A DNA stretch of 52,713 nt from positions 1 through 52,713 of the IMG/VR virus record IMGVR_UViG_3300037882_001471; one strand, written 5' to 3'. The notes under the pieces are model-generated. The model was not told where the DNA came from, made no database searches, and saw only the letters and a list, made by a program, of their open reading frames with translations. The position numbers were made by a program, and so were the translations under genes. Shown here piece by piece: positions 9,421 through 29,218 of the stretch. Positions within the stretch are counted from its first letter, which is position 1; the number at the start of each line of letters is the position of its first letter. Origin of the DNA: a virus. Lineage: Duplodnaviria > Caudoviricetes.

Positions 9421-9693
9421 TTGATGAAAAAAATCCTCATCAAAAAAGCGAAACAGAATTGCATCGTTGTTTTTGAGACAGCAACGGGCCGTGCTGCGAT
9501 CATTGCTTCCGATGTCGGCAATGTGCGTGATCCTGCATGGCGACCGATCGGCCATATTTGCGTTGCTGTTCCACCAGCGATTTACAATGAAAGCATTAAA
9601 GATGGTCATGATCCGCACAAGCTGGTGATCGATTATGCGCGCCTGAGATTCGAATCGCATCTCGCTAAAATGTTTGGGAGCATCGCAGCATGA
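9421..9693 (+). CDS. hypothetical protein
   Basis: RBS GAGG; ATGA-coupled to next gene. Confidence 0.55.
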   Translation: MMKKILIKKAKQNCIVVFETATGRAAIIASDVGNVRDPAWRPIGHICVAVPPAIYNESIKDGHDPHKLVIDYARLRFESHLAKMFGSIAA

Positions 9694-12380
9694 CCCAAAT
9701 TTTCATTTTAGCCGGAACGACTTCATGGACGGTTCCTGATGATTTCGACGTAGCCGCAAATACCATCGAAGGCATCGGCCCTGGCGGTCACGGCTTCCAA
9801 ACTGTCAGCACGGGTGCATCGGGCGGCTCCGGTGGTGGTGGCGCTTATGCAAAAATCACCAACTGGTCAGGATCAGGATCGGTCACAACACAGGTCGGTG
9901 CGGGAGGCAGTGAAACCGATACGATGTTCGTGGATGGCAGCACGCTCGTTGCAGATGCGGGCAAAAATGGCGCGTCCACCACCGCAGGTGCAGCAGGTTT
10001 AGCATCCGGTTCTGTCGGCAGCACAAAATATGATGGCGGCGCTGGCAAGCGTTCATCGATTGCCGGTTCCGGTGGCGGTGGCGCGGCTGGCCCGAACGGT
10101 GCAGGTAAAGATGGCGGTGTCGGCGCTGCTGGCAGCACCAGCACGTCAGGCGGTGGTGGCGGCGGCGGCTCCGATGGTGGATCATCGACAGCAGGTGCTA
10201 ACGCCTCCGGCAGCACGCGCGGCGCTGGTGGTCATGGCAATGACGGCACGGGCGGCGGCACTACAAACGGTCAAGCTGGTACGGCAAATAAAGGCGCAGG
10301 TGGCGCTGGTTCCGATACTGGCGGCTTCAGTGCATCTGCGACTGCCGGTGCAGGCTCGTCCAGTCAAGTATTCGATGCCACGCATGGCTGCGGTGGCGGT
10401 GGCGGTGGTTCTGGCGCATCGGGCGGTTCCGGTACGGGTGGCGGTGGTAACGGCGCGAATTATGGCGGCGGTGGCGGTTCTGTCGGTCAATCTGCTGGTG
10501 CATCACCTGGTACGCGCGGCACGGGCGGCGCTGGTATTCTCGTCATCACCTACACTCCGCTTGGTGATGCCACTACGTTCGCGTTCAGCGGTGATAATGC
10601 AAGCCATGTCGGTGAATGGTCTGACAATATTACACTCAGCCCCACTGCTGGCCTCTGGCCTGTAGGTGTCACCATCACACTTAGCGATGGCGGCGCGGGC
10701 GGCACATTTTATCCTGCTACACTTAATCCTACCGCTGGTGTTACTGCACCTGTAAGTTTCCGCTATCGCCCCGCAACTGCTGCGTCGATCAGCATTGATG
10801 CTGACAGCGGCGGTGAGATGACCGATCCCAGCGTTCATTCGTTCACAGCGAGTGCTGCTGAAGAATGCGCCTATTACCCACAGATTCCTGGCTATATCGA
10901 TTTCGAGTTGCAGGATTATACAGAACTCGGCGCAACTGCTGTCGATTTTGAATTTTGCCAAGATAATAATGAACTGGCGGTCGGCGCATCTTCCGGTACT
11001 TGCACGGTCACGGGTGTTAGCAGAGCGGAGAAGCGTTCAGTTGGTTCCGCTACCGGAACAACTCCTACAGCTTCAGCATTCGGCGTAACTGCAAAACGTG
11101 CAGTCGGTTCTTCCACAGGCACGAGCACGGCGGCGGCGGTCGGCGCTCCTAAATTCCGTGCTGTCGCATCATCGACCGGCACGAGCACGGTCACGGCGAC
11201 GAGCAATGCCTTAAAAGCCTCGCCTGGTTCAGCAAATGGCGCGTCCAGTGTTTCAGGTGTCGGTTCGGCAGATACGGAAGGGATCGGCTCTGCCGCAGGC
11301 ACGACTACGGCTAATGCCGTCAGCGCTGCCACCAAGACCGCAGCAGGATCATCCTCTGGTGCTGCAACCTGTTCCGGTGTTGGTACAGCGGCAATCCGTG
11401 CTGCGGGTTCTTCGACTGGCACGAGCACGGCTACTGGTGCTGGCGCAAGTGCAAGCACAGGTGCAGGTTCTTCCTCCGGCACATCTACAGTTTCAGCGAC
11501 AAGCAATGCGACCAAACGATCGGCAGGTTCCGCCGCTGGTCTAGGCACGCCTGCTGCTGTCAGCAACGCGACAAAGGCATCGGCTGGCGCATCCTCCGGT
11601 CTTGCGACCTGCACGGGTGTCAGCCGTGCTGAAAAGCGGTCTGCTGGTAGTGCAGCGGGTACAAGCACGGCTACGGCGGCTGGCGCATCGGAAGGTGATA
11701 GTGCCGGCAGCGCAGCGGGTGTTGCAACGGTCAATGGTGTTTCGGCAGCGCAGAAGCGCGCGGCGGGCGCATCCACCGGCACATCGACGTGTAATGGTAC
11801 AGGAAGATCGGAATTCCGCGCTGTCGGCTCATCAATTGGCACAAGCACGGCAGCGGCGACAGGTGAATCTGAAGCGCGCGGAGCAGGATCGTCCTCTGGC
11901 GCGGCTTCGTGCAATGCCACCAGTAATGCTCTTAAAACCGCCTCCGGCAGCGCGGCGGGTGTTGCAACTTGCTCCGGTGTCATCACTGGTCAGATTCCTG
12001 CTGTTGGCGCGGCGGCAGGCTCAAGCACTGCTACGGGTGATGGTACTGCACAAAAACGCTCGGTAGGTAATGCCGCCGGCACGAGCACGGCTGATGCGCC
12101 GTCACAATATGGCGTACCAGGCAGCGCCGCAGGTACGAGCACGGTCACGGGTGTAGGTGTTGCGGAATTCCGCGCGGCTGGCTTTGCGGCTGGCTCTAGC
12201 AGCGCCGATGGTGTTGGCAGTTTCGTTGCATCTTCACCTGAACGGCTGGTGATCACCGTCGAATTGAGCTTGCTAAGTGAGCGCACTGAAGTTACTATAA
12301 TAGAAGAATATATTGAGGCCAGCATTGTCGATAACGACATTACCGTGGAATTAACTCTGCTTGGGGATGATGAACCATGA
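9690..12380 (+). CDS. glycine-rich fibre protein with ~21 tandem 20-aa repeats
   Basis: N-terminal Gly-rich domain (SWTVP...GGGGAY...GGAGILVITY), then xGS(A/S)xGxxTxxxxG/S repeats at 10980-12236, acidic C-terminus. Confidence 0.75.
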   Translation: MTQIFILAGTTSWTVPDDFDVAANTIEGIGPGGHGFQTVSTGASGGSGGGGAYAKITNWSGSGSVTTQVGAGGSETDTMFVDGSTLVADAGKNGASTTAGAAGLASGSVGSTKYDGGAGKRSSIAGSGGGGAAGPNGAGKDGGVGAAGSTSTSGGGGGGGSDGGSSTAGANASGSTRGAGGHGNDGTGGGTTNGQAGTANKGAGGAGSDTGGFSASATAGAGSSSQVFDATHGCGGGGGGSGASGGSGTGGGGNGANYGGGGGSVGQSAGASPGTRGTGGAGILVITYTPLGDATTFAFSGDNASHVGEWSDNITLSPTAGLWPVGVTITLSDGGAGGTFYPATLNPTAGVTAPVSFRYRPATAASISIDADSGGEMTDPSVHSFTASAAEECAYYPQIPGYIDFELQDYTELGATAVDFEFCQDNNELAVGASSGTCTVTGVSRAEKRSVGSATGTTPTASAFGVTAKRAVGSSTGTSTAAAVGAPKFRAVASSTGTSTVTATSNALKASPGSANGASSVSGVGSADTEGIGSAAGTTTANAVSAATKTAAGSSSGAATCSGVGTAAIRAAGSSTGTSTATGAGASASTGAGSSSGTSTVSATSNATKRSAGSAAGLGTPAAVSNATKASAGASSGLATCTGVSRAEKRSAGSAAGTSTATAAGASEGDSAGSAAGVATVNGVSAAQKRAAGASTGTSTCNGTGRSEFRAVGSSIGTSTAAATGESEARGAGSSSGAASCNATSNALKTASGSAAGVATCSGVITGQIPAVGAAAGSSTATGDGTAQKRSVGNAAGTSTADAPSQYGVPGSAAGTSTVTGVGVAEFRAAGFAAGSSSADGVGSFVASSPERLVITVELSLLSERTEVTIIEEYIEASIVDNDITVELTLLGDDEP

Positions 12381-12715
12381 CCGTAGAAACTGAATTTTTC
12401 AAAGGTGATTCAAGCGACATCTTTTCCGTGAAAGTGTACTCCAATGGCGTACAGGTAACGGGTGATGATCTCTCTGAAAATTACGAAGGTTCATTCAGTC
12501 TCGTGAAGAAGCTCGGCCTTGAGCCAGTGCTGACGAAAGACATGGTGATCGTAGAAGACAGTTTCCGTGCATCGGTCGTGCCTGATGAGAGCGAAGACCT
12601 CGCCACCGGCAACTATATCGCTGTTACCGAGATCACTAAAGTTGACGGCACTTACCGCAAGGAAAAGCATGTCAGCGTAGCCGTGCGCAAGCAGGGCGTG
12701 GTGGTCACTCCGTAA
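12377..12715 (+). CDS. putative BppU-like/Ig-fold virion attachment protein
   Basis: FKGDS N-terminus and DLATGNYIAVTEI motif typical of small phage Ig-like adaptor proteins; ATGA overlap. Confidence 0.5.
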   Translation: MTVETEFFKGDSSDIFSVKVYSNGVQVTGDDLSENYEGSFSLVKKLGLEPVLTKDMVIVEDSFRASVVPDESEDLATGNYIAVTEITKVDGTYRKEKHVSVAVRKQGVVVTP

Positions 12716-12980
12716 GTCTTTTCTCCATCTCTGCTCGATATACCGGCCCGTACACATCGCCCACAGCGCTAAGAATTCTCGCTCGCACAGTCTGATATTT
12801 GTGACCGTCTTTCAACGCCGCCCGAATATAATCCTGCCAATCTACGAGCACTCCGCGCTGTTGGAAAAATGATAAGATGATTTCCAGCGGCACGCCGTGA
12901 GTTCCGACGAGAGTGAAAACACCCGCCATCACTGGAATATCAGATTCGGTTTTGCCGACAACGGTTAGAATTTTCTTCAT
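12705..12980 (-). CDS. alanyl-tRNA synthetase helical-domain-like small protein
   Basis: GVFTLVGTHGVPLEIILSFFQQRGVLVDWQDY resembles AlaRS AFxLYDTYGFPxDLT...GxxVD. Confidence 0.55.
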   Translation of the reverse strand: MKKILTVVGKTESDIPVMAGVFTLVGTHGVPLEIILSFFQQRGVLVDWQDYIRAALKDGHKYQTVRARILSAVGDVYGPVYRAEMEKRLTE

Positions 12981-13228
12981 GACGTGAAATCTGCACGCCA
13001 TTTTTTAATATTCTTTTCTACCGCATCTTTAGAATCGCCTAGAAAACAGGCTAAGGGTATAAATTCACCGGGTGGATAAATTGTAAAACCATCAGCGAGT
13101 GCATTTAATTCATCGTTGGTGTACCACTTACCGTGCTCAAGTTTTTCCGCAGCTTTATGACCTAGCACGAAGCGCGCGTTATATTCTACGCAGCCGCGCG
13201 GTGATACCAGACCTATCCATCTGCTCAT
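12977..13228 (-). CDS. hypothetical protein
   Basis: ATGA-coupled. Confidence 0.6.
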   Translation of the reverse strand: MSRWIGLVSPRGCVEYNARFVLGHKAAEKLEHGKWYTNDELNALADGFTIYPPGEFIPLACFLGDSKDAVEKNIKKWRADFTS

Positions 13229-13494
13229 ATCGTTTGATCTTTATCCAGCATCGTATAGATGCGCCCGCTTGACATGCGAAGAATATTTGGGCGAGTGGGA
13301 AAATGCTTATCGAGCAGTTCGATAAAGAGCGGCATCGCCTGTTGCAGCGTCAAATCCTGCTTCCCTTCGATCGTGCCGAAGATGAAGGATTCTTTGCCCG
13401 GAAATTGCACGCGGCCAATCCAGTATCGGCGGCAAACCTCGCCGCTTTCTAATTTGTCCGGGCGTGCGTCGGTCATTCCTGCTGATACGATCAT
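13225..13494 (-). CDS. hypothetical protein
   Basis: ATGA-coupled. Confidence 0.6.
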   Translation of the reverse strand: MIVSAGMTDARPDKLESGEVCRRYWIGRVQFPGKESFIFGTIEGKQDLTLQQAMPLFIELLDKHFPTRPNILRMSSGRIYTMLDKDQTI

Positions 13495-14174
13495 ATTTCC
13501 AGCCTCATAATTACAGGTGTGATCGGCGCATCATTTTTGGTGAACGGGTCTTTAAAGAAAAGTTTGATCGGAGGAAAGCACGGGATATAACCGTCAACAG
13601 GTGCGCCGCGTTTCGGGCTGCTGCTGATACCGATGAAGTTTACCGTTCCGCCACCGTTTTTGCATTCGGCAAAATTGGTGTGATTTGGCGGATCGTACAG
13701 CATCCGTTCATATCCTTCATAGTTGACCTCACTTTCGATGTGAATATCACCGAAAAGACCGAGATATTTTGGCTCAGATTCATTTACACTATTGCCCGTG
13801 CAAATCAAAGGATGGCCGGTGATTTTTTCGTACAGTTTTTCACCTTCACAAATTAGTTTCATTGCTTCTTCTTTATGGTTTTTCATATATAAATCTTGAT
13901 CGTCAGTGAGTTTTATCAAACACAGAAGCATCTGACCGATCATTGAGCCGATTTCTTTCTCCGGTTCCTCGCTCATAATTTCGTAGCCGCCTTCACCTAC
14001 CGCCCAAATCTGGTAGGGAAAGTGATCACCAGGATAGCGATAATCACGGAGCATGGCGACCTTATCACCTACGCCGCCGAAGCGATCGACAATGAACGTC
14101 ATGCCCACTTTGCCTTCGAGCACGCGAGCTAAACCTTTTTCCGTAAGCCGTGCGACAATCATGGCTTTACACAC
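13491..14174 (-). CDS. hypothetical protein
   Basis: 227 aa ORF in leftward operon. Confidence 0.6.
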   Translation of the reverse strand: MCKAMIVARLTEKGLARVLEGKVGMTFIVDRFGGVGDKVAMLRDYRYPGDHFPYQIWAVGEGGYEIMSEEPEKEIGSMIGQMLLCLIKLTDDQDLYMKNHKEEAMKLICEGEKLYEKITGHPLICTGNSVNESEPKYLGLFGDIHIESEVNYEGYERMLYDPPNHTNFAECKNGGGTVNFIGISSSPKRGAPVDGYIPCFPPIKLFFKDPFTKNDAPITPVIMRLEI

Positions 14175-14419
14175 TTGAAAACGATGACAGGATATTGCGT
14201 GTCTGACATGACGCTCTCTTGGGTTGTAGTGGTGATGACTTCCAGTTTCTTACCTTCATTGTCACATGCACGCGCTGCCGCCGTTGCGACATCACCGCCC
14301 ATAAGTTGAAAGCCTTTGATCGTGCGAATATCACTGTTCGGGCCTGGTGCTTGCGCTACGCGCTGGCCGCAGGCCGTTAGTGTGATGGTACAGCAGAGAA
14401 TTGCGAGAATGGTTTTCAT
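14159..14419 (-). CDS. putative lipoprotein
   Basis: MKTILAILCCTITLTAC: lipoprotein signal peptide with LTAC lipobox. Confidence 0.7.
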   Translation of the reverse strand: MKTILAILCCTITLTACGQRVAQAPGPNSDIRTIKGFQLMGGDVATAAARACDNEGKKLEVITTTTQESVMSDTQYPVIVFKCVKP

Positions 14420-14462
14420 GGTTTATTTTCCTTTCGTGGTTGGTGTGAGTGTGATGGTAGAG

Positions 14463-14975
14463 CTATTGTTTCTGGTATAGCCCTTTGCGCACCCTGACCA
14501 TTCTGTTCTTCACGGTCAGTTGAGCGAGGGCATTATTTACCGCTCCTTCTGATACATCATGCCCTTTTTCTTTCAGTTCTTCCCATAGCTGGAACACTGC
14601 ACGGCTTTTACCATCGCTCATGCATTCTTCCACTATGTGAGTCACCGAGGCGCGCTGTATTGTAATTTTTTTGCTGCCGCCTTCCTTGAGAATGGACAGA
14701 ATTTCGTCCAGCTTCGCCATGATTGCGCTGTTGCTGATCGATTCCGATGGTGGAGTAACGGATAGGGGGGGGGGGGTTTCTACTGCCGATGGCGCTTCAC
14801 CGTTGACTAGGCTGTATTTACCCCGGCTGATCTTCTTCACCACGTTTTTGTTGGCGAGTGCGATCAGCCCTTGCTTGACAGCGCTGTAAGTTTTTTCCGA
14901 GAGAGTTTCCAAATCAGGAATGGAATATATTTTTCCATCCTGCATGATTTCCCTGAGTTTATCTTGTGTGGACAT
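14463..14975 (-). CDS. tandem winged-HTH DNA-binding protein with poly-C linker tract
   Basis: Two similar units (AVKQGLIALANKNVVKKISRGKYSL / AVNNALAQLTVKNRMVRVRKGLYQ); G12 run at 14765-14776. Confidence 0.7.
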   Translation of the reverse strand: MSTQDKLREIMQDGKIYSIPDLETLSEKTYSAVKQGLIALANKNVVKKISRGKYSLVNGEAPSAVETPPPLSVTPPSESISNSAIMAKLDEILSILKEGGSKKITIQRASVTHIVEECMSDGKSRAVFQLWEELKEKGHDVSEGAVNNALAQLTVKNRMVRVRKGLYQKQ

Positions 14976-15017
14976 TTCGATTTGCTCCTTATTGGTGTTA
15001 GTGTGATGGTACAGCTA

Positions 15018-15389
15018 TCAGGCAATCATCTTGTCGAAAATATCGACAGACTTTTCCATGATGTCGTTCACGGCGGTCACATACTGTTTCCGCGTGATTT
15101 GTTCCCCTAGATGATGGGGATAGGTGTGATATTTTGAATTGATCTCAATCACACCGTTCTTATCGCGCTGCACACGCAGGCAAACCACCATGCCCATCGA
15201 GTCCACGCGCAGCACGCGGAAATAGATGTACCAGTAGTCTTTCGCCGTTTTCGGCAGGCTGTAGTTGTTACGATAACGGAAATACTTGCCGACGAATTTT
15301 TTAGCTTCCGCCTGCTTTTCTTTATTTCGTGCTTCATAAAGCGCGCTGTTTATCTTTCGCGCCTCTGCTTCGAGTTTCTTGAGTGACAT
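15018..15389 (-). CDS. hypothetical protein
   Basis: AAGGAGCAA RBS; flanked by 15-bp repeats. Confidence 0.7.
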   Translation of the reverse strand: MSLKKLEAEARKINSALYEARNKEKQAEAKKFVGKYFRYRNNYSLPKTAKDYWYIYFRVLRVDSMGMVVCLRVQRDKNGVIEINSKYHTYPHHLGEQITRKQYVTAVNDIMEKSVDIFDKMIA

Positions 15390-15427
15390 AGGTTGCTCCT
15401 TTTGCCGGTGTAGGTGTGATGGTACAG

Positions 15428-15766
15428 CTAGATTTCCTTCGTCCAGCCTTGGTAGCTGTGCAGGGAAACCAGTTCACCCTCCTTGCCGTTCTTCAGCAGA
15501 TTGATGCCTTTTGCATCATAGCTCTGATTGTAGGATGAATAGACTTCCACCACGCGCACGCGCCGCACCCGGCCAATGCGTCTATCTGGCGCGCTCACGA
15601 GAATGTCACCAGGTGCGAAGCCTGCATAGATAGGGCCAAGCTCACGCCGGATAGCGCGCTCATCTTCCATCAGCGGCGCTAATTCCTGCCGGTGGCGATC
15701 CTTCATTGCGCTAAGTTCCGCGCGTTTCGTCTTCAGTTTTTCTTCCAGTTCAGTTGCAGTGCTCAT
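15428..15766 (-). CDS. hypothetical protein (coiled coil + small beta domain)
   Basis: AAGGAGCAA RBS; flanked by 15-bp repeats. Confidence 0.7.
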   Translation of the reverse strand: MSTATELEEKLKTKRAELSAMKDRHRQELAPLMEDERAIRRELGPIYAGFAPGDILVSAPDRRIGRVRRVRVVEVYSSYNQSYDAKGINLLKNGKEGELVSLHSYQGWTKEI

Positions 15767-15975
15767 TTTATTTTGCTCCTTTGGTTGGTCGTGAGTGTGA
15801 TGGTACAGCAGTGCCGGCGGTGTAGGTGTAATAGTACAGCGGGTGTGAGTGTGATGGTACAGCGGGGAATCGCTTTTCAGCCCGCCCCGAAAACGCGCTT
15901 TTCGTAACCCATTGATTTATCAGGGGTAAAAACTGACCCCCTTTTAATCGCCCGGAAACGGCCTTTTTAAGCGTG

Positions 15976-16188
15976 TTACCTTCCCCGGCTCTTACCCCCT
16001 TCCGTTACCCGGTTTTGCTCGCGTGCGGCGAAGAAAACAACCCCGCTTTCTTTTCCAGCGGTATAGCCTGCCTGGTATTTCTCGCGCTCAAAATGCCCCG
16101 CGAATTCGTTTTTAGGCTCGCGGCCCATGATAGCGTCACAATACCCGGCTTTTCCTGCCGCGCCTTTTATCTCATGCCTTTCTGTCAC
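15976..16188 (-). CDS. small protein, possibly Rmf-like
   Basis: GKAGYCDAIMG...NEF...YQAGYTAG pattern. Confidence 0.45.
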   Translation of the reverse strand: MTERHEIKGAAGKAGYCDAIMGREPKNEFAGHFEREKYQAGYTAGKESGVVFFAAREQNRVTEGGKSRGR

Positions 16189-16403
16189 AGTTCCCCCCCG
16201 TCACGATATGCGGCCCCTAAAACTATGGGCCTGGTTTCAATCGCTTCAGCATAATCACGCATGAAGTTTTCCACCTGCCAGCCGGATTGCTGGCAATGCT
16301 TTTTTATCCCCTCGCGCATAGCGTCAAGCGCCACCGTGCGAGTTGCGCCGAAAGACTGGAAAGAATAATGCCGGGTTTCCAGCGTTGACTGATAAATGAT
16401 CAT
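16185..16403 (-). CDS. hypothetical early protein
   Basis: AAAGGGG RBS, overlap with next gene. Confidence 0.6.
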   Translation of the reverse strand: MIIYQSTLETRHYSFQSFGATRTVALDAMREGIKKHCQQSGWQVENFMRDYAEAIETRPIVLGAAYRDGGEL

Positions 16404-16418
16404 AATGTTACCCCTTTA

Positions 16419-16483
16419 AACAGCGTCATAAGTGGACGGGTTGAAACGATGCAAGAAACAACCCGCCCGCTTATAATGCCGCT
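16419..16483 (-). ncRNA. candidate regulatory hairpin RNA (25-bp stem, 15-nt loop)
   Basis: 16419-16443 pairs with 16459-16483 (2 mismatches, 4 GU on minus strand); loop UUUCUUGCAUCGUUU. Confidence 0.55.
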
Positions 16484-16600
16484 CTAGCTTTCCGGCTTGC
16501 CTGCCTTTATCCAATCATCAAAAGACAACGGTATTTTATTAGCACGTTCGCGCGCCGTAAAATATGCGTCATATTCTTTTAGCAATGCATCATCTGGCAT
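16484..16600 (-). CDS. small hypothetical protein (38 aa, not in ORF track)
   Basis: MPDDALLKEYDAYFTARERANKIPLSFDDWIKAGKPES fills the gap exactly. Confidence 0.55.
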   Translation of the reverse strand: MPDDALLKEYDAYFTARERANKIPLSFDDWIKAGKPES

Positions 16601-16603
16601 AGT

Positions 16604-16831
16604 TCAAGCCTCTACTGATATAAATCCCGCCTTTTGTATTTCCCTAGCGCGTGCGATTGCCTCGCTAGGTTTGAGAAATAGCGGCTCGCTTTCCCAAAAT
16701 AACAGTTTTCTACCTTCACGAATTGCCGCGCCGTAATAGCGTTTATAATATCGCTTATAGCTCGGACGTGCGGAGCGTATGCGCGCGTTTATATCCTGCG
16801 TTATTTTATCCGCTGCTTGTTTGGTTATCAT
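16604..16831 (-). CDS. hypothetical basic protein
   Basis: ATGA-coupled start at 16831. Confidence 0.55.
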   Translation of the reverse strand: MITKQAADKITQDINARIRSARPSYKRYYKRYYGAAIREGRKLLFWESEPLFLKPSEAIARAREIQKAGFISVEA

Positions 16832-17034
16832 GCCATACCAGCCTTTCCCGCGAATAATCCATTTTCCCATGCAATGTGCTGCAACGGATTGCGCCAGGTG
16901 AAAGGGTTATGCGCCCATTGCAGGCATTGCAGCGGCGCGCCTGTATGCGGGCAGAATCCACCAGTTAGCAAGGGACGCGGGCATTTACCAGCGCGCCAGC
17001 CCGCCCCGTAAGCAGTGCGATAAGCTCTAAGCAT
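16828..17034 (-). CDS. small protein, possibly Rmf-like
   Basis: AYRTAYGAGWRAG...NPF...AWENG resembles RMF AxxxGYxAG...CPY...WLGGW. Confidence 0.5.
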   Translation of the reverse strand: MLRAYRTAYGAGWRAGKCPRPLLTGGFCPHTGAPLQCLQWAHNPFTWRNPLQHIAWENGLFAGKAGMA

Positions 17035-17260
17035 AAAACTTTCCCGTTGCAAAATCGCGTTGATATATCCAGCCGCGAATTATTTGATTGCGCTGATATT
17101 GTCCCATTGCTTTCCACCTCTCAGGCGTGCGCAAGGTTTCCCATTTGCGCGCGTGAAGGATGCAGGATTGAATCCAGCGCAATCGTAAACTTGCATCATG
17201 CATAGCGAGCACTGCGCACGCCTGCTTATGCGTCATTGTTCCATATGTCCCGCTATGCAT
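17027..17260 (-). CDS. hypothetical protein
   Basis: Fills gap between neighbours with short overlaps; start uncertain. Confidence 0.45.
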   Translation of the reverse strand: MHSGTYGTMTHKQACAVLAMHDASLRLRWIQSCILHARKWETLRTPERWKAMGQYQRNQIIRGWIYQRDFATGKFYA

Positions 17261-17681
17261 GGATTTTCCCGTCATCACCGATATATAAATCTATATTATC
17301 GAATGCCGTGCGAAAGCCGCAAGCCTCTGTTAGTTTTTCGCCTGCCTCACCTAAACCCCTATCCCAAAATCCCGCGCCATGCCCGCAACGGGTAAGCCAA
17401 AAATCATGGCCCGCCTGCGAGGGGGTATAATCCTGCAATCCCTCGCGCGTTTTGTGTTGCATGGAATATGCAGTTTTAAGCAGTGCGGAATATTGCACCT
17501 GGAATTTCTGACAATCTGCAATCATCTTACCTAGCGTTTCCGGCGCAATGTCTTCTATGCAGTGATTGTCATCTAGGTTTACGTCTTCACCGTTCACCGT
17601 ATCAGTTGATGACCATAGCGCGCATTCCATATAAGCGCGCGTGAATTCGTCCACCTTGTAAGGATCAATAATATTTTGCAT
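17253..17681 (-). CDS. conserved phage early protein of unknown function
   Basis: FTRAYMECALWSS and AGHDFWLTRCGHGAGFWDR motifs recurrent in phage early regions. Confidence 0.7.
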   Translation of the reverse strand: MQNIIDPYKVDEFTRAYMECALWSSTDTVNGEDVNLDDNHCIEDIAPETLGKMIADCQKFQVQYSALLKTAYSMQHKTREGLQDYTPSQAGHDFWLTRCGHGAGFWDRGLGEAGEKLTEACGFRTAFDNIDLYIGDDGKIHA

Positions 17682-17693
17682 CGTTTTAGCTCC

Positions 17694-18545
17694 TTATGCT
17701 GCTTGCGTGTTGTCATCAATGCCCGCGCCGTCTGCAAATGCCGCCCACAGGTGCGCGCGCCATGCGTTGCGGGGATTGCGCAGGTGTTCATAATCATCCC
17801 ATAATTCCGCAGCGTGCTTTTTAGCCTTGCCGATAATCCGCAAATGCGCTTTGACTTGCTCGCGTAACGCATTGCAGATAACAGGCGCGGCCCCGCGTGC
17901 GCGTTCCTTTTTGATTGCGCTGATAAGTTCCAGGCAGGCGCGGCGCGTTTCTTTTATTCCCTGCAATTCTTCAGCGTAATCACTGCCTGCGCGCCACGCT
18001 TCATTATATTCCCTTTCTTCTTCAGCCTGCTTTTCTGCAATGCTATCGGCATGGCGTGCAACTTCGCGTGCTGTTTTATCGTAACTTGCGCCTTCAGCCG
18101 CGCCGCCTTTTTCACCTTCATAAATTGTATTCAGGTAAAGACGCGCGCCGCCTGTATCGTCAAAGTTTTCTGAATCGATGTAACCAGCGATATATTGCGG
18201 CTTGCCTTTGCGCGCTGGCAATTGATAGACAACCCCGCGCAATTTCGCGCCCGTGCCGTCATCATCAGTAAACCAGCCTGTATGATCGATGCCATACGCA
18301 TAGTTATAATTGCGCGTTGCTACCTCATCAGCATAACCGACAAAGCGCAATCCTGTTGCCGCGTGCTCTATCCACCGCGCGCCGTCTTTTCCTGCTTGGT
18401 TATATTCGATATTTGCGCGCATGTTTGGAATATTCCACCATTCCACGCCAGCGGCAAAACGGTTTTGCGCCTGTATATATGCCGCCTGCGCAGTTGCGCC
18501 ATTGGCACGAATACGCTTGTATAATTCTGAGATAGTGCTTTGCAT
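17694..18545 (-). CDS. hypothetical early protein
   Basis: 283 aa, RBS present, IDHTGWFTDD motif. Confidence 0.7.
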   Translation of the reverse strand: MQSTISELYKRIRANGATAQAAYIQAQNRFAAGVEWWNIPNMRANIEYNQAGKDGARWIEHAATGLRFVGYADEVATRNYNYAYGIDHTGWFTDDDGTGAKLRGVVYQLPARKGKPQYIAGYIDSENFDDTGGARLYLNTIYEGEKGGAAEGASYDKTAREVARHADSIAEKQAEEEREYNEAWRAGSDYAEELQGIKETRRACLELISAIKKERARGAAPVICNALREQVKAHLRIIGKAKKHAAELWDDYEHLRNPRNAWRAHLWAAFADGAGIDDNTQAA

Positions 18546-18575
18546 CGTTCTATCCTTCCTTTCCTGAGTGTGTGA

Positions 18576-19070
18576 TTAGTAGATTGTTACAGCGCCGCCG
18601 GATTGCCAGCTTCCCGCGCTGTAATCGAATTTCTGCCCGGTTTTACTGACAACGCGGTAAATAGGAATATAGTTTGCGTTACCGTGCCGCCCAAAATCAT
18701 CAAAGCCGATAAGCTCAAAACGATCAAAGTTTTCCGGCTTGATATATTCCGCGTCAAATTGACTAAGCGGCGCGTTTTTGCGTGTTGCGCCTTTTGGAGT
18801 CCATTGCTTAGAGCGGAGAAAAGCTAAACCTTTTTCAATCTGCTTTTCGTCGGCAATAAGCGGAGGGTTTTTTTCGATACGCTCTAAAATCTCGCACAAT
18901 TCCGGGCCTGTCATTTTGCTTGACGTGCTGCTAGTGGAAAGATTTTGCACGCGCCTGGAATCAGCATTAAGCGCTTTGCGCAAGCCTCTTATGCGGCCCT
19001 CGCTGATTTTACCCGTTTTCAATTCCGCAAGCGCGGCAAGATAAGGGCGGGAGTGTTTTACTTTTTGCAT
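18576..19070 (-). CDS. hypothetical early protein
   Basis: AAGGAG RBS, own promoter. Confidence 0.7.
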   Translation of the reverse strand: MQKVKHSRPYLAALAELKTGKISEGRIRGLRKALNADSRRVQNLSTSSTSSKMTGPELCEILERIEKNPPLIADEKQIEKGLAFLRSKQWTPKGATRKNAPLSQFDAEYIKPENFDRFELIGFDDFGRHGNANYIPIYRVVSKTGQKFDYSAGSWQSGGAVTIY

Positions 19071-19105
19071 CGTTTTAGCTCCTTTGTTGCATCGTTAGTA
19101 TTGAT

Positions 19106-19159
19106 AATCTAGCAAGTGTAATTACACATTGCAAGCCTTATTTTTACATTCCGTAAAAA
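19106..19159 (-). promoter_or_regulatory. leftward promoter with upstream operator
   Basis: Minus strand TTGCAA-17-TAGATT; TTTTTAC-ATTCC-GTAAAAA at 19141-19159. Confidence 0.6.
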
Positions 19160-19512
19160 CTCTGATTTTCCTCATAGAATTTAAGCGCGGCAAGCATGGA
19201 TATATTTTTAAGTAAATGCCATTCACTGCCGCCCGCCTCGCCTGCATACCAGTTGCCAGCTATCTTTTTAAATAGCGTGCCGTCATAGCTCAAAATATCC
19301 GTTTCTCGATTGTGTGTAATATCGGGAATTAGTAAAGGCGAGCCGTAATCATCCACTAGCTTGAAACCGCTGTAAGGATTGCCGCCTTCAATAATCACCT
19401 GGTTAGCTTCCTGCATGGTGATTTTATGCGGTTCGCAAGCGATATTATTATGGTCAACTCTGACAAATGATAATGCGCCTGATCCGCTGGCATAGATTTT
19501 AATTCTGCTCAT
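19144..19512 (-). CDS. hypothetical protein
   Basis: 122 aa ORF in early operon. Confidence 0.6.
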   Translation of the reverse strand: MSRIKIYASGSGALSFVRVDHNNIACEPHKITMQEANQVIIEGGNPYSGFKLVDDYGSPLLIPDITHNRETDILSYDGTLFKKIAGNWYAGEAGGSEWHLLKNISMLAALKFYEENQSFYGM

Positions 19513-19516
19513 ATAA

Positions 19517-19972
19517 TTACCCGTGCGCGTTGTGAATGTGAAACGTGCGATAGCCTAGCGACTTGGCAATTGCGCCTAATGCCTCGCGCATGGCGCTATC
19601 ACCTACGCCGCTGATTGACTGCGAAAGTACAACCCCCGCGTCATCAATTGCAGCGGCAAGCGCGGCGCTCGCTTTATGATAGCCACAACCGCCCGCCTTT
19701 CCGCCTCCGCTGATATATACAGCCTCGCGCTTGCCGCGTGCCTTATCGCTTATCCATATGCACGCATACGCCGTTGATCCATACATGCGGCTTGGCACGC
19801 TGTATATTTTAGCGTTGATAATCGCTTTCATGTTTTCACCTTCACGCGGTTCATAATCAACCCGGCCCGCTTGATAGGAAACCAGCACGGCGAATTCCTG
19901 GTGAAAGTGTTGCTCTTTACGGTATTTTGCAACTTCGCCGTCATGTTGTGTTTTGGTGATTTTAGCTTGCAT
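19517..19972 (-). CDS. conserved phage early protein of unknown function
   Basis: GGGKAGGCGYHKASAALAAAI motif; AAGGAG RBS. Confidence 0.7.
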   Translation of the reverse strand: MQAKITKTQHDGEVAKYRKEQHFHQEFAVLVSYQAGRVDYEPREGENMKAIINAKIYSVPSRMYGSTAYACIWISDKARGKREAVYISGGGKAGGCGYHKASAALAAAIDDAGVVLSQSISGVGDSAMREALGAIAKSLGYRTFHIHNAHG

Positions 19973-19984
19973 CGTTTGTACTCC

Positions 19985-20221
19985 TTAGTTTTGTGTTGCG
20001 ACTTCCTCATAGCGTGCATACAGCGCCGCTAGAATTATTTCCGTATCTTCTTCAGGCTTCAGCTTTTCCAGCAAGGATAATTCCGTGCGGAATTCTTCAG
20101 CGTCTTCACCCTGTAAATATACGCTCTTAGCTTGCGCGGTATTGTTGAGCGAATAACTAAGCCCGTTGTGATAACTGGTTAGTGTGAAATTCGCGCTTTG
20201 CCTTATGATGACGGCGGGCAT
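19985..20221 (-). CDS. hypothetical protein
   Basis: AAGGAGG RBS. Confidence 0.65.
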   Translation of the reverse strand: MPAVIIRQSANFTLTSYHNGLSYSLNNTAQAKSVYLQGEDAEEFRTELSLLEKLKPEEDTEIILAALYARYEEVATQN

Positions 20222-20236
20222 CGTTTTTGCGCCTCC

Positions 20237-20428
20237 TTAGCGCTTCGCAGTGCTGGCGTATTGCGTGCCAGTCATATCAATTTCAACGGTTGTAACCAGG
20301 CTTTGCGGGCGTTGACTATTCGGCACTTCGCTAAAGTCTGCGAGGCGATAACCGTAAATATGCCCGATAAGCGCGCCGTTTGCCAACATGACAACAGCGG
20401 CGATTGTAAGAAGGGTTTTAGCTTTCAT
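20237..20428 (-). CDS. small membrane/secreted protein
   Basis: Hydrophobic N-terminus; AAGGAGCAA RBS. Confidence 0.6.
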   Translation of the reverse strand: MKAKTLLTIAAVVMLANGALIGHIYGYRLADFSEVPNSQRPQSLVTTVEIDMTGTQYASTAKR

Positions 20429-20458
20429 TGTCTTTTGCTCCTTTGTTAGTGTTGTTAG

Positions 20459-20487
20459 ATTTTACCAGCCGTAAAAATTGAAGTCAA
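20459..20487 (-). promoter_or_regulatory. leftward promoter with operator in spacer
   Basis: Minus strand TTGACT-17-TAAAAT containing TTTTAC-N5-GTAAAA (20460-20476). Confidence 0.65.
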
Positions 20488-20494
20488 ATAAAAA

Positions 20495-20677
20495 CTACAT
20501 TGTTGCGGAATAAATCCAACCAAGAGTTAGAATTAACCAACCGCTAATAAATGCAGCGCGTGAAAATTTCGGGTTTGAAACAACACGCTTTACACCTTGA
20601 ATCATGGCGGCGATTACAAACCAGCTTACAACCGCGTAAAGCGTCATAGCTGCTACCATATAAAATGTATTATGCAT
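20495..20677 (-). CDS. small two-TM membrane protein
   Basis: Two hydrophobic stretches; start overlapping upstream stop. Confidence 0.55.
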   Translation of the reverse strand: MHNTFYMVAAMTLYAVVSWFVIAAMIQGVKRVVSNPKFSRAAFISGWLILTLGWIYSATM

Positions 20678-20939
20678 TTTCTGCCCAATCGCTAGACTTG
20701 TCATACTCTGCAAAATCTTCAGGGCATTTATCACCCTCATTGACCGGCCCGAATCCTACACACAGCCCGCCGAATCCCGGCGCGTTGTCTGCATCCTGTA
20801 CTATGCCAACGTCACCGCGCTTTGCCGCTATTGCCTGCGCTGCTTTATTTGCAGCGTCTTCCAACATCGTTACAATGTCGGTCAACTCTTGCGCGCTCGC
20901 TTCTTCCGCAAGTTGGTTTATGTTTAAAAAATGTGCCAT
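20670..20939 (-). CDS. acidic hypothetical protein
   Basis: AAAGGAGCAACTAA RBS. Confidence 0.65.
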   Translation of the reverse strand: MAHFLNINQLAEEASAQELTDIVTMLEDAANKAAQAIAAKRGDVGIVQDADNAPGFGGLCVGFGPVNEGDKCPEDFAEYDKSSDWAENA

Positions 20940-20953
20940 GTTAGTTGCTCCTT

Positions 20954-21172
20954 TTACTGGTTAGAAAATTCAGGTAATTTACGCGCCGCCTCTTGTCCAC
21001 AAGCGCCGCATTTTTGTTCACTTCCAACTTTATAGGTGAAGTGTGGAGCGCCGTTAAAAACATGCCCGCATTCGAGTATGCAGATAACCCCATCAGAACG
21101 ATGATCCGCGCTTGTGATTTTACGTTGCGGGCGCATACCGCTGGCAACATAATTAAATCGTGCGTTGTTCAT
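20954..21172 (-). CDS. small Zn-ribbon protein
   Basis: LECGH...KCGAC. Confidence 0.55.
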   Translation of the reverse strand: MNNARFNYVASGMRPQRKITSADHRSDGVICILECGHVFNGAPHFTYKVGSEQKCGACGQEAARKLPEFSNQ

Positions 21173-21269
21173 AATACCCCCTGAATCAGCACGCCTGCGA
21201 ACATTGCGGCAAATAACCACATTGCATAACCTGGCGCGTTGCGTTGCATCTTACGGCGCTGTTTGCGTG

Positions 21270-21521
21270 TCATAAACTCATAACCTTTGTTACAGTGTTA
21301 AAAACGCCGCCTTGATGCCCGTGCATATCATCGGCAAAAATCTGATTGCCGTTGCTTTCCTTCCACTGCGTCAAGAGCGCTATGTAATCCGCCTTTACGA
21401 TTTTCACACATCCACCAGCGCCGCCAGGAATAGGGCATACAATTTCTTTTGCCATGCGCGCCAGTTTTATCGCTTCTTTAATTGTCTCCGGCGCTAGAGA
21501 ATGTTCACCAACATTTTGCAT
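21270..21521 (-). CDS. hypothetical early protein
   Basis: AAGGAG RBS, own promoter. Confidence 0.65.
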   Translation of the reverse strand: MQNVGEHSLAPETIKEAIKLARMAKEIVCPIPGGAGGCVKIVKADYIALLTQWKESNGNQIFADDMHGHQGGVFNTVTKVMSL

Positions 21522-21561
21522 CGTTTTAGCTCCTTTTGGGGTTGATCTATCTTACATATGA

Positions 21562-21615
21562 ATACTACACACTACATATTACATAGTCAACAGCTATTTT
21601 TACATTCCGTAAAAA
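21562..21615 (-). promoter_or_regulatory. leftward promoter with upstream operator
   Basis: Minus strand TTGACT-17-TAGTAT; TTTTTAC-ATTCC-GTAAAAA at 21597-21615. Confidence 0.65.
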
Positions 21616-21673
21616 ATAATTGCATCAATTTTTAACGCTGGCTTATACGCCACTGCGCACGGCTCGCGCCTGC

Positions 21674-22204
21674 TTACTGCTTATGTCCCGGCGGATTGAC
21701 CGGAGGATATTGCACGGGTTGCAGCGGCTTGCCGCCTGTTACATGGCTCGCGCTGCTGACGTTGGTAAATGTCAACCCTTTAATGGTTTTGTAACCTGGC
21801 GTTTTCCTTAAATGCTGGCTCATCTGTGACCGATTAATTCCCAGCATACTGCAAGCCTCCGCTGCGTTGCGGAATGTTTGCCCGGTTTGCTCGCATTTAA
21901 CAGGATTATGCCGGTTGACGTGCTGGGTTAAATTCAGTGGCGGCCATCCATGCGCCTTGATCCATGCACTTAATGCGTTGCTCGCTTCTAACCTGTGTTT
22001 ATGTAAACTTACCACGTCTAAAAGATAGTGCTTGTTATGATCCCAATCAGGATTTTTAATTGCGTCTGCTGCTGCTATTACATTTGCGTGTTTACAGTAC
22101 CATGCAAAATCAGGCATTCCGCTGCTGTTATCTTGTGCCGTAATGGTATAAACAGCCCATGCATTTTGCGATAAGTCTGTATTGATCCAAGTTTTAAGTA
22201 TCAT
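21674..22204 (-). CDS. NUMOD1-type HTH protein (homing-endonuclease-derived DNA-binding domain)
   Basis: PVKCEQTGQTFRNAAEACSMLGINRSQMSQHL...KTIKGLTF. Confidence 0.6.
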   Translation of the reverse strand: MILKTWINTDLSQNAWAVYTITAQDNSSGMPDFAWYCKHANVIAAADAIKNPDWDHNKHYLLDVVSLHKHRLEASNALSAWIKAHGWPPLNLTQHVNRHNPVKCEQTGQTFRNAAEACSMLGINRSQMSQHLRKTPGYKTIKGLTFTNVSSASHVTGGKPLQPVQYPPVNPPGHKQ

Positions 22205-23014
22205 GGTAGTTCCTTTGGTTTGGGTTTTGTGTAATAGCTACACTGTAGCAGTTTACCAGATTGTAACGGTTTTACAATAGAAAAATAGAGGAAAAGCCGA
22301 TTTTCATATCCGTCCGTCAATGCAACGCTACATAAATTAAGATGTAACTATCTAAAGTGTTGCCACTTAGCAGCGCTCCAAGAGTATAAAAAACGCATAA
22401 GTGACCAAACTCAGGAAATCAAAAATTCATAAGCCGCTGTTGAAACCCCGTCCTAATCATGGCGGAATGTAGTGCGCAATAGTGTAACACCTGTATCACC
22501 TGCGCCAATCTTACCACGCTGTTACATCGTCACCTAATGCAGAATAAACTACATTCTACACACTACATCATTACACAAGCTAGATGTGGGGAAGATGCCA
22601 GGTAGGTAGCAGGCTGGCGCATCTCTACCGAGGGGGGCCGTTCCCCCGTCTTTTGCGGGGCGTGGGATCGATCCGCACATTTTGTAAATTTGGCAAAATT
22701 GAAAACCCGAACCAAGATTCATGAGTTATAAAAGTTGAAAATATAACTCACACCCCCTCCCCCCCACTTCAACAGATATAAATTCTCCATTCGGAAATTT
22801 TCTGGTATTTTGAACATCAAGCCCCTCACGTTCCTAGAGGGTTGGGGAAGGCAGCAACGCTTGAATGGATTACCTGCAACAGATGAGCCGTGAGATATTC
22901 CGGGGAGAATGGTTGTCAAACTGTCGGTGATGTGGGCTTGTCATTGGCGATGGAAGGTAGTCACTGCCAAAATTTTTTCCGATCTGGCAGCAGCCACGAG
23001 CAGTGCATTTACAG

Positions 23015-23043
23015 TTGACACCAGATTTTACAGTGTGTAAAAC
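23015..23043 (+). promoter_or_regulatory. rightward promoter with operator in spacer
   Basis: TTGACA-17-TAAAAC containing TTTTAC-AGTGT-GTAAAA (23026-23042). Confidence 0.6.
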
Positions 23044-23149
23044 TTGCTCACACCGGCAGGGTAGTTTAAGGTGGTAAAAACACCGGAGGCTTGCGCCACT
23101 GGAAATGAAGGCTCGAAATCTTCCTCTGCCGCCACAAAAGGAGCATGAA

Positions 23150-23338
23150 ATGATCACTATCGACAGCCTCATCGCAGAGGGATTGTACGCATGGGACACC
23201 AGCGTTCCACCGGATGAGCATGGCCGGCATTATCTGCGCCGCACGCCAGCAGGTGACAGGGCCGCGATGTTCTGGTCGCCGGAGAAGCTATCAGCCGTGC
23301 AAAATCTGCTCGCAGCAGCCAGCCAAGTACCGGCATGA
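23150..23338 (+). CDS. hypothetical protein
   Basis: AAAGGAG RBS before ATG 23150. Confidence 0.55.
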   Translation: MITIDSLIAEGLYAWDTSVPPDEHGRHYLRRTPAGDRAAMFWSPEKLSAVQNLLAAASQVPA

Positions 23339-23463
23339 CAGTTGGTGAGCTGCTTGACGCGCTTAAAAATCAGCCGCGCGATCGTGAGGTAACTTTCACC
23401 ACGCCGAATGGTCAGGTATGGACGCCTGAGAAACCAAAGGAACAAAATGATGCTCGTAAGTGA
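23335..23463 (+). CDS. small hypothetical protein (42 aa, not in ORF track)
   Basis: MTVGELLDALKNQPRDREV, same N-terminal pattern as next gene. Confidence 0.5.
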   Translation: MTVGELLDALKNQPRDREVTFTTPNGQVWTPEKPKEQNDARK

Positions 23464-23635
23464 TTTGATAAAAGCATTGCAGGCGATGCCGCAGGATGCG
23501 CTCGTGGAATTTCATGACGCAACCTATAACCGCACCTGCCCGGTCAACATCGTGCATCCACAGCCTGTCAAGGTGGATCGCATTTCGGCAGAATTTGCGG
23601 TCGTTCTCACCAACAATGATGGAAGGTATCGCTGA
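23447..23635 (+). CDS. hypothetical protein
   Basis: MLVSDLIKALQAMPQDALV, common phage small-protein family. Confidence 0.6.
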   Translation: MMLVSDLIKALQAMPQDALVEFHDATYNRTCPVNIVHPQPVKVDRISAEFAVVLTNNDGRYR

Positions 23636-23862
23636 TGAGCGACATTAACGCACGATTGCAGCACATCGTTACCATGATGGGCATCACCTACAACCGCGAT
23701 CAAACATGGGAGCAGATGGGGCTGGACTCATTGGATGAAATTTCGCTGGTGATGGAGATCGAGGAAGAATTCAACATCGAAATTCCTGATGGAAAAGCTG
23801 CGGAGATAAAAAATCCTGAGCAGGCGATCGAATATTTAAAACAAAGGGGAATACTGTTGTGA
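23635..23862 (+). CDS. acpP: acyl carrier protein
   Basis: MGLDSLDEISLVMEIEEEFNIEIPD with phosphopantetheine Ser (DSL). Confidence 0.88.
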   Translation: MSDINARLQHIVTMMGITYNRDQTWEQMGLDSLDEISLVMEIEEEFNIEIPDGKAAEIKNPEQAIEYLKQRGILL

Positions 23863-24059
23863 GCTATCACGCCTATCCGCGATCCGGTAAATGGATTCTC
23901 ACCCGCACGGGCGGCAAGCGCGCGCTCAAACGCTACGATACCGAGCGCGAAGCATGGAAAGAGGCAAAAACCCGTGCCGCATCGGAGCATGTCATCGCTT
24001 ATTTGCACGATCACACTGGCAGAATCGTAAAAAGGGTTCCGAGCTTTGAAGAAAACTGA
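23859..24059 (+). CDS. DUF2188-like small protein
   Basis: HxYP..GKW...GGKRA...DTEREA...HDHTGRI. Confidence 0.6.
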   Translation: MSYHAYPRSGKWILTRTGGKRALKRYDTEREAWKEAKTRAASEHVIAYLHDHTGRIVKRVPSFEEN

Positions 24060-29062: not shown

Positions 29063-29091
29063 TTGACGAATTGCTCTGACTATCGTATAGT
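29063..29091 (+). promoter_or_regulatory. sigma70-like promoter for major capsid gene
   Basis: TTGACG-17-TATAGT. Confidence 0.75.
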
Positions 29092-29100
29092 TACACTGCA

Positions 29101-29140
29101 TCGTTTTGGATGAAACGAAGCGCTTAGGTTGGATGACCTT
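29101..29140 (+). promoter_or_regulatory. twin TGGATG-loop hairpins in capsid mRNA leader
   Basis: TCGTTT-TGGATG-AAACGA and AGGT-TGGATG-ACCT. Confidence 0.65.
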
Positions 29141-29218
29141 ACAATTTTTGGTTAAACAATTGGCGCTTCGTTTCTTCTATTCATGGAAGTTGCGCCGCTA
29201 AACAAGAGGTGTACTTTT

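Follow-up and report, generated by a model that had tools for sequence, protein, structure and literature searches.

In the early mRNA of phage T7 and at the lambda sib site, long hairpins between cistrons or at mRNA 3′ ends are cleaved by RNase III, and this cleavage determines how stable the mRNA is and how adjacent genes are translated; the several sites of T7 each have a characteristic internal loop. We describe an RNA hairpin encoded in the virus record IMGVR_UViG_3300037882_001471 (Duplodnaviria; Caudoviricetes), which was analysed over its whole length of 52,713 nucleotides, hereafter the window. The hairpin is similar to the T7 and lambda sites in its position and in its stem of approximately 23 bp between two cistrons, but it is a single site and its stem is interrupted by 1 x 1 mismatches only. 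Its apical loop is antisense to a motif that spans the start codons of early genes lying upstream of it on the same strand. We know of no RNase III site whose loop is antisense to other starts of its own operon, and none turned up in a literature search.

Antisense control in phages P1 and P7 involves the C4 antisense RNA of the immI region, which, in the account given in PMC8198154 (citing Citron and Schuster, 1990), is needed for full repression of ant. The hairpin in the window resembles c4 in being a stem-loop RNA placed in the same operon as its presumptive targets, with a loop complementary to six starts on the same strand. The loops of c4, which lies upstream of a single target region and is freed by RNase P, pair with the ribosome-binding region of icd, whereas the window hairpin lies downstream of five or six separate targets with a common start motif and has a stem that suggests RNase III. 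Rfam includes a C4 family; the two RNAs show no sequence relation, and a scan of the whole window against Rfam 15 at gathering thresholds returned no match to any family. By analogy, the hairpin may be regarded as a variant of known phage antisense control, similar to P1 c4 but not a member of the c4 family.

DicF targets host mRNAs and the pairing in icaR mRNA is one-to-one within a monocistronic mRNA, whereas here a single loop would address a family of cistrons of its own operon through their common start motif. Regulatory RNAs carved from, or embedded in, longer mRNAs and pairing with ribosome-binding or start regions include, as presented in PMC5069750, PMC6393394 and PMC3868564, DicF of the Qin prophage and small RNAs from mRNA 3′ ends; for icaR mRNA, the title of the report states that base pairing between the 5′ and 3′ untranslated regions controls translation.

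For the motif itself, the closest described counterparts are the start-associated sequences (SAS) of cluster K mycobacteriophages. These are presented as asymmetric sequences that include the ribosome-binding site, stand at a fixed short distance from the ATG and precede a subset of non-structural genes of different families; their function has been described as unknown since 2011, and a single copy in the opposite orientation is reported for K1 mycobacteriophages (PMC3203893, PMC11373665, PMC12699233). The window motif likewise stands at a fixed distance from the start, is conserved beyond the ribosome-binding site and occurs on genes of different families. It differs from the SAS in sequence (consensus GGGATAGGAGCCC in the SAS), in spanning the ATG rather than lying upstream of it, and in belonging to another phage lineage with other hosts, and is an analogue of the SAS, not a member.

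An intercistronic hairpin with a loop antisense to gene starts

The hairpin (Table 1) is contained in a run of approximately 24 small open reading frames (ORFs) on the minus strand (13491-22722), most of them with ribosome-binding sites of the AAGGAG type, which we infer to be transcribed together and refer to as the early operon. The foot of the stem is the G of the TAG stop codon of a 38-aa ORF (16484-16486) and 3 nt separate its other end from the AAAGGGG of the gene with start 16403, so that the hairpin fills the gap between stop codon and next ribosome-binding site, as the initial annotation of this locus had claimed. When 101 nt were folded, the minus strand reached -36.5 kcal/mol (z -3.19; equally good folds in 1 of 200 shuffles) and the plus strand -28.7 kcal/mol (z -2.64; 5 of 200 shuffles). 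The better pairing of the minus strand, with two mismatches, was as first annotated; we count 24 pairs, and five G-U pairs, the terminal pair included, instead of four. Among 70-nt minus-strand segments of the 13.4-23.3 kb region the hairpin is the most stable fold (-34.9 kcal/mol; runner-up -32.7), but it is not the most stable of the genome, in which other 80-nt segments reach -43.8 kcal/mol.

Minus-strand matches to the complement of the loop, AAACGATGCAAGAAA, span an ATG with a ribosome-binding site in front of it at six starts, all located upstream of the hairpin, and the lengths of complementarity originally listed for these starts (9-12 nt; Table 1) were reproduced exactly. At least 9 complementary nt were found in six of the 24 early start regions, a result equalled by 1 of 20,000 shuffled loops and by 4 of 20,000 random same-strand 15-mers. 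Predicted duplex energies in the window were bimodal, the six sites ranging from -11.9 to -16.7 kcal/mol and the other 18 lying at -9.5 kcal/mol or weaker. Loop matches of at least 10 nt occur eight times on the minus strand and, besides the loop itself, not at all on the plus strand. The 10-mer AACGATGCAA is the commonest of the window (eight copies, both strands counted), and AAACGATGCAA, with at most one mismatch, occurs nine times against 1.9 expected, a number to which none of 100 shuffles rose. As controls, the loops of six other long hairpins (G000, G003, G008 and G013) each matched the same strand best over 8-12 nt, at one or two scattered places, and a check by eye of the contexts of these matches revealed no ATG with a preceding ribosome-binding site. 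These comparisons support the conclusion that the loop is antisense, non-randomly, to the start motif of the upstream early genes.

Our preferred interpretation, which we put forward tentatively, is that the hairpin is a same-operon antisense stem-loop that damps translation of the set of genes carrying the start motif, its long stem serving processing or stability.

Further copies of the motif lie apart from these gene starts. That at 9459-9468 is within a plus-strand ORF and was taken as a chance occurrence. Another (UAACGAUGCAA, 19087-19096, minus strand) lies 22 nt upstream of the 19070 copy, in the leader of that gene, and starts a five-codon mini-ORF (MQQRS) whose TAA falls in the ribosome-binding-site spacer of the next gene.

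Conservation of the hairpin in a related phage

Close relatives, which proved rare, were sought by means of the large terminase in viral contigs, which yielded 18 loci. One of these genomes, G001 (57.5 kb; large terminase 88% identical), has parts of the early region in common with the window at 69-78% DNA identity, the hairpin included; a covariance model (R1) did not find the hairpin in the other 17 terminase-locus records, and megablast and blastn searches of the phages collection gave nothing relevant to it. Small neighbouring proteins had no relatives in viral contigs, and the 142-aa and 283-aa proteins matched distant, non-syntenic loci only. An alignment search with a conserved 70-aa neighbour found one weak locus in metagenome contigs, G001 only in viral contigs and no match in genome contigs, and this family has six members in the protein database, the window's own included. 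A pattern for part of the loop had three matches in coding sequence of unrelated phages of approximately 110 kb, a pattern for the stem with a free loop retrieved G001 and the GC-rich unrelated contig L065, and the loop pattern had no match in genome contigs; the matches in the 110-kb phages and in L065 were taken as chance.

In G001 the hairpin directly follows the stop codon of the homologous small ORF and is closely followed by a ribosome-binding site. The downstream gene is not the same as in the window, which also carries one extra gene upstream of the hairpin; because the flanking genes differ in this way, the hairpin is a conserved island amid a mosaic neighbourhood. None of the 22 aligned pairs is lost (44 of 44 cells paired); there are four compensatory double changes, two single changes to G-U and three conserved G-U pairs, whereas sliding the 3′ partner by 1-3 columns left 43-55% pairing and no double change. 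A shuffle control for pairing was weaker (28 of 500), as expected with two sequences only. The sense strand of G001 folds to -47.3 kcal/mol (z -5.6) and the antisense strand to -39.4 kcal/mol, and a covariance model built from the two sequences scored the sense strands at 102 (102.1 for the window) and 93 bits and the antisense strands at 28 (27.7 for the plus strand of the window) and 32 bits. On account of the conserved G-U pairs and this strand asymmetry, we interpret the element as an RNA structure on the strand of the early mRNA rather than as a DNA palindrome or a plus-strand RNA.

The same data bear on an alternative raised in the initial annotation, according to which a plus-strand RNA acts as a decoy, its mirror hairpin showing a mimic of the start region (AAACGAUGCAA) to a translational repressor. 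The plus-strand loop does hold the exact start motif, and the plus strand still reaches -28.7 kcal/mol (z -2.64), but in both phages its fold is weaker than that of the minus strand, and the three conserved G-U pairs would be C-A mismatches there. Moreover, no promoter-like site on the plus strand nearby points into the hairpin, the nearest hits lying downstream of it (16671 and 16830), and the two phages do not agree in the frame or the length of the short plus-strand ORFs opening within the loop. A decoy is, in our estimation, very improbable.

As for processing, the 24 pairs of the window and 25 of G001 extend beyond the roughly two helical turns (at least ~20 bp) of an RNase III-type stem, and in both phages the hairpin is intercistronic, standing in the window between the stop of the 38-aa ORF and the ribosome-binding site of the 72-aa ORF. 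These two pair counts were the highest in a scan of eight related genomes for stems of at least 17 pairs, the next best having 23. The stem is irregular at 1 x 1 mismatches only; the C-A mismatch 10 bp below the loop is kept in G001, and the lower mismatch is replaced there by a G-C pair. An intrinsic (Rho-independent) terminator was considered and rejected, as the pattern of a short GC-rich stem, a 3-8-nt loop and a U-rich tract is not present. Typical intrinsic terminators are unlike a loop of 13-15 nt on a stem of approximately 23 bp, and a terminator scan of 12300-24400 returned no terminator-like site on the minus strand at 16418-16484. The tail after the stem reads UGUUUAAAG (window) or UUUUAUAAG (G001).

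A purely structural role between blocks of early genes (a site for RNase III or other processing, a 3′ stabiliser or a leaky terminator), with the loop match being a leftover or a coincidence, would account for the exact placement of an approximately 23-bp stem with small mismatches between stop codon and next ribosome-binding site in both phages, and for compensatory changes that conserve the structure. It would also sit well with the UUUUAU that follows the stem in G001, with a loop not measurably better conserved than the stems, and with leader types that differ by side, the motif starts lying upstream of the hairpin and CA-rich CCAUCACAC leaders mostly downstream. What such a role leaves unexplained is that the loop is the reverse complement of the commonest 10-mer, when only 1 of 20,000 shuffled loops matches as many starts, and that the loop core is identical in the two phages while the stem has changed at 10 of 44 positions; the blank terminator scan and the unusual loop and stem also speak against termination. 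We regard a purely structural element, the chief competitor of the antisense reading, as rather unlikely, though by no means negligible.

The loop of G001, UUCUUGCAUCGUC, has the same 12-nt core (UUCUUGCAUCGU) as that of the window. Relatives that keep the stem with loops unrelated to their own start motifs had been named at the outset as evidence that would speak against antisense pairing; in the one relative checked, the loop still fits the starts at 47336, 47126 and 44166 (Table 1). G001 has five motif starts upstream of its hairpin and a weaker site (50270) downstream of it. At least 9 complementary nt were found in 3 of its 34 start regions, equalled by 10 of 20,000 shuffled loops, and duplex energies ranged from -10.5 to -15.9 kcal/mol at six sites, the rest lying at -9.6 kcal/mol or weaker. 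The loop ends in ...CGUUU in the window, where all motif-bearing starts have AAACG or GAACG, and in ...CGUC in G001, where the starts at 47126, 47336 and 50270 have AGACG.

The start motif as a portable leader unit

The motif, of consensus A(A/G)ACGAUGCAA (also given as A(A/G)ACGATGCAA), extends across the AUG in five or six early genes upstream of the hairpin. At three starts the sequence AAGGAGCTAAAACGATGCAAAA is identical across 22 nt, and variants of it occur at three more, all on one strand and in the early region; wherever the motif stands at one of the six gene starts, its ATG serves as the start codon, with constant spacing to the AAGGAG ribosome-binding site. Homologues in G001 were detected by blastp for just 9 of the 24 early ORFs of the window (10 by tblastn). 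Only one homologous pair (19972 in the window and 47336 in G001) has the motif in both phages; in the pair 20428/47126 it is present in the G001 member only, and the remaining motif-bearing genes have either no counterpart or a counterpart without the motif. Because the motif genes are mostly non-homologous between the window and G001, the motif appears to be a portable leader unit placed on different genes. Searches against Pfam and PHROGs assigned no function to the motif-bearing genes.

The repetition of AACGATGCAA could also mean that a phage or host protein binds it as double-stranded DNA in either orientation, like the stoperators of mycobacteriophage L5 (contrasted with SAS in PMC3203893) or like an operator placed where transcription begins. 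The loop copy and the copy at the capsid promoter would in that case be additional binding sites of this protein. Both orientations are indeed represented among the eight 10-mer copies, and one copy occupies the expected position of an operator, just past the -10 element of a conserved promoter (see below). However, the coincidence of the motif ATG with the start codon in six copies, with fixed spacing to the ribosome-binding site, points to the level of translation, and the conserved G-U pairs and the better fold of the sense strand would be needless for duplex DNA. We consider a DNA-binding site improbable.

A second word is found among the early leaders. The sequence CCATCACAC, or ATCACAC(T)C, stands 5′ of the ribosome-binding sites of the genes starting at 14419, 14975, 15389, 15766 and 18545 (minus strand), and its 10-mer ACCATCACAC is present in seven copies. 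This CA-rich class of leaders is distinct from the start-motif class and is found mostly on genes downstream of the hairpin.

Table 1. Positions of the hairpin, its complementary gene starts and associated features in the window, and complementary starts in the related genome G001. Energies are predicted duplex energies unless stated otherwise.
Feature	Position	Strand	Remarks
Intercistronic RNA hairpin	16418..16484	-	24 pairs (7+7+10), two 1 x 1 mismatches, 15-nt apical loop
Apical loop UUUCUUGCAUCGUUU	16444..16458	-	Antisense to start motif; core UUCUUGCAUCGU identical in G001
72-aa ORF	16185..16403	-	Directly downstream of hairpin; ribosome-binding site AAAGGGG begins 3 nt past stem
38-aa ORF	16484..16600	-	TAG stop (16484-16486) adjoins 5′ foot of stem; G001 homologue of 51 aa, 55% identity
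Start-motif site AAACGAUGCAA, 142-aa gene (start 17681)	17676..17686	-	11 nt complementary, -14.6 kcal/mol
Start-motif site AACGAUGCAA, 283-aa gene (start 18545)	18540..18549	-	10 nt complementary, -15.0 kcal/mol
Start-motif site, 164-aa gene (start 19070)	19065..19075	-	11 nt complementary, -14.6 kcal/mol
Start-motif site AAACGAUGCAAG, 151-aa gene (start 19972)	19966..19977	-	12 nt complementary, -16.7 kcal/mol
Start-motif site AAACGAUGC, 78-aa gene (start 20221)	20218..20226	-	9 nt complementary, -11.9 kcal/mol
Start-motif site, 83-aa gene (start 21521)	21516..21526	-	11 nt complementary, -14.6 kcal/mol
Sigma-70-like promoter TTGACG-17-TATAGT	29063..29091	+	10 of 12 consensus positions; upstream of major capsid gene
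Second antisense copy UGCAUCGUUUU	29097..29107	+	Predicted unpaired 5′ tail, 5 nt past promoter; 11 nt complementary to starts at 17681, 19070 and 21521
Stable leader hairpin followed by U-rich run	29107..29179	+	93-nt leader, fold -34.8 kcal/mol; upstream of likely capsid-gene start 29219
G001 start-motif site GACGAUGCAA	start 47336		10 nt complementary to G001 loop
G001 start-motif site GACGAUGCA	start 47126		9 nt complementary
G001 start-motif site ACGAUGCAA	start 44166		9 nt complementary
G001 start-motif site	start 46595		8 nt complementary
G001 start-motif site	start 43892		7 nt complementary

A second antisense copy upstream of the capsid gene

A second antisense copy of the motif follows a promoter-like sequence on the plus strand ahead of the major capsid gene (Table 1). 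In the corresponding region of G001 (~36960-37060, minus strand of G001) the promoter (TTGACC-17-TATATT) keeps both hexamers, while most of the spacer has diverged, and from a point shortly before the -10 element the two phages are near-identical in this non-coding region. The tail in G001, UUGCAUCGUUUU, is complementary over 12 nt to that phage's own start at 44166. The segment 29063-29179 (plus strand) is a candidate small-RNA gene, or a leader, with a seed at its 5′ end. The unit of promoter, leader and hairpin, with the core GGATGA..AAGCGC..GGTTGGATGACC, is also present in the more distant relatives G003, G007, G008, G009 and G013, whose large terminases are only 60-66% identical. A second copy of the capsid leader was seen in G003, near position 12629. 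A 473-aa reading frame on the opposite strand (27680-29101, minus), antisense to the portal gene and the gene after it, has its start at the second antisense copy of the window; it is probably spurious, since it is 260 aa in G001.

Proposed mechanism

The favoured mechanism would run as follows. A leftward polycistronic early mRNA would carry the ~23-bp stem with its conserved C-A mismatch, presenting a loop of 13-15 nt. Once the hairpin region has been transcribed, the loop core UUCUUGCAUCGU would form 9-12 bp with the start regions (-12 to -17 kcal/mol predicted), either in cis, on one mRNA, or in trans, once the stable hairpin has been excised or has outlasted the mRNA. Such pairing would cover the start codon and lower 30S binding, and translation of the gene set would be damped or shut off. 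The long stem would act as a processing or stability module, its length fitting an RNase III substrate, and the second copy, at the 5′ end of a structured RNA before the capsid gene, may have the same function. Every step, from transcription and intracellular pairing to repression, cleavage, release of a small RNA and operation as a timer, is one that we infer from the two genomes, and the mechanism proposed in the initial annotation is best described as plausible and partly supported, although unproven. We prefer the antisense stem-loop because it covers at once the selection at RNA level, the identity of the loop with the reverse complement of the commonest word of the window, and the use of that word as the upstream start context in two phages.

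An RNA-binding protein (a translational repressor or a processing or antitermination factor) might instead read the loop on its stem as an RNA operator, the start motif being read by another factor, for instance a RegA-like one. Two conserved elements, the loop core and the C-A mismatch 10 bp beneath the loop, resemble features of specific recognition, many adjacent early proteins are without known family, and repression of early start regions of the RegA type in T4 provides a precedent, as presented in PMC3014915. A binder of UUGCAUCG would not, however, bind its complement, which leaves the antisense relation unexplained, and no RNA-binding domain was found in the 14 early proteins scanned against Pfam or the 29 proteins scanned against PHROGs. 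We give an RNA operator a low probability.

Several points weigh against the antisense stem-loop. Pairing of 11-12 bp up to the 3′ edge of a closed 15-nt loop is, in our judgement, sterically demanding. The case is built on sequence comparison and predicted folds of two genomes; with the hairpin present in these two only, the relation between loop and motif that they have in common may reflect one ancestral event, and the five distant relatives examined, which do not have the start motif, and the 17 without the hairpin provide no independent test. When indels are counted, conservation of the loop (12 of 15) is not above that of the stem (~77%). Co-variation of loop and start motif among relatives, named as a check in the initial annotation, was seen at a single position; it is suggestive but weak, because a loop U pairs with both A and G and three of the six motif starts of G001 retain A. 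Part of the motif may represent a general preference of start regions, as AAACGATG also stands in front of genes outside the early run (7946, plus strand; 4366, minus strand). Finally, the second antisense copy could be a coincidence of approximately 10 nt, about 0.3 such matches being expected by our estimate over 105 kb on both strands, and the 5′ tails of the capsid leaders of G003, G007, G008, G009 and G013 vary and are not antisense to gene starts.

If the antisense stem-loop is correct, one small RNA element within an operon would coordinate translation of a block of early genes without a protein regulator, and a concrete function would be available for start-associated sequences, the role of which is described as unknown for cluster K mycobacteriophages. 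The motif and its anti-motif hairpin would in that case also be a compact natural part for engineered gene circuits. Should the loop not pair, the hairpin would still be a clear intercistronic RNA structure, backed by covariation, from a lineage of phages that is uncharacterised.

A possible parallel in cluster K mycobacteriophages

In Anaya (L086, 39850-39900) and Adephagia (L096, 2160-2215) a GCGCGG/CCGCGC hairpin presents the reverse SAS copy in its 10-nt apical loop (CCUCCUAUCC). This hairpin stands on an outer 10-bp stem with compensatory changes (10 aligned phages, A3) and has many conserved G-U pairs on the gene-sense strand; it gave no Rfam match above threshold. The Adephagia copy is located between genes 92 and 93, a gap in which late transcription 'appears to initiate' according to the statement in PMC11373665. 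Immediately upstream of the reverse-SAS hairpin is another covarying hairpin, whose loop is GAAA.

The parallel is weakened by the fold of the single Anaya sequence, which is no better than that of shuffles (z -0.68), and by 3 of the 10 aligned phages, in which the loop has diverged or the element is absent. In Amgine the canonical SAS is retained in 12 exact copies, while the loop has become CUUCCCUUCCC, the complement of which is no start motif in that phage; since its loop has diverged and its SAS has not, the two do not co-vary there. We take the cluster K hairpin as a possible lead, not as support. It is conceivable, though unlikely in our view, that start-associated motifs with antisense copies on structured RNAs are a general phage device for silencing a set of early genes translationally, the logic of which cluster K may share. 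The two copies in the window phage would then be the loop of the early-operon hairpin and the 5′ tail of the RNA before the capsid gene.

Phage and gene context

The 52.7-kb record has an estimated completeness of 98% and represents a complete or near-complete virus. The window contains tailed-phage genes for a primase, a DNA polymerase, a terminase, a portal protein, a P22-type capsid protein, a tape measure protein and a J-like tail fibre, and by its capsid protein the nearest cultured phage is Rhizobium phage P106B (67% identity). Almost none of the early-run proteins has a known family.

Long hairpins analogous to that of the window occur in G003, G008, G009 and G013, with loops that have scattered matches of 8-12 nt only. 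Repeated 10-mers around ATG in G003 and G009 were rejected as start motifs, being tandem repeats. G003 has an 18-bp tandem repeat array of approximately 30 copies (TGCAGCTTTGGCGAGnnn; ~30248-30908, minus strand), and 12-bp repeats occupy the contig end of G009 (positions 1-80).

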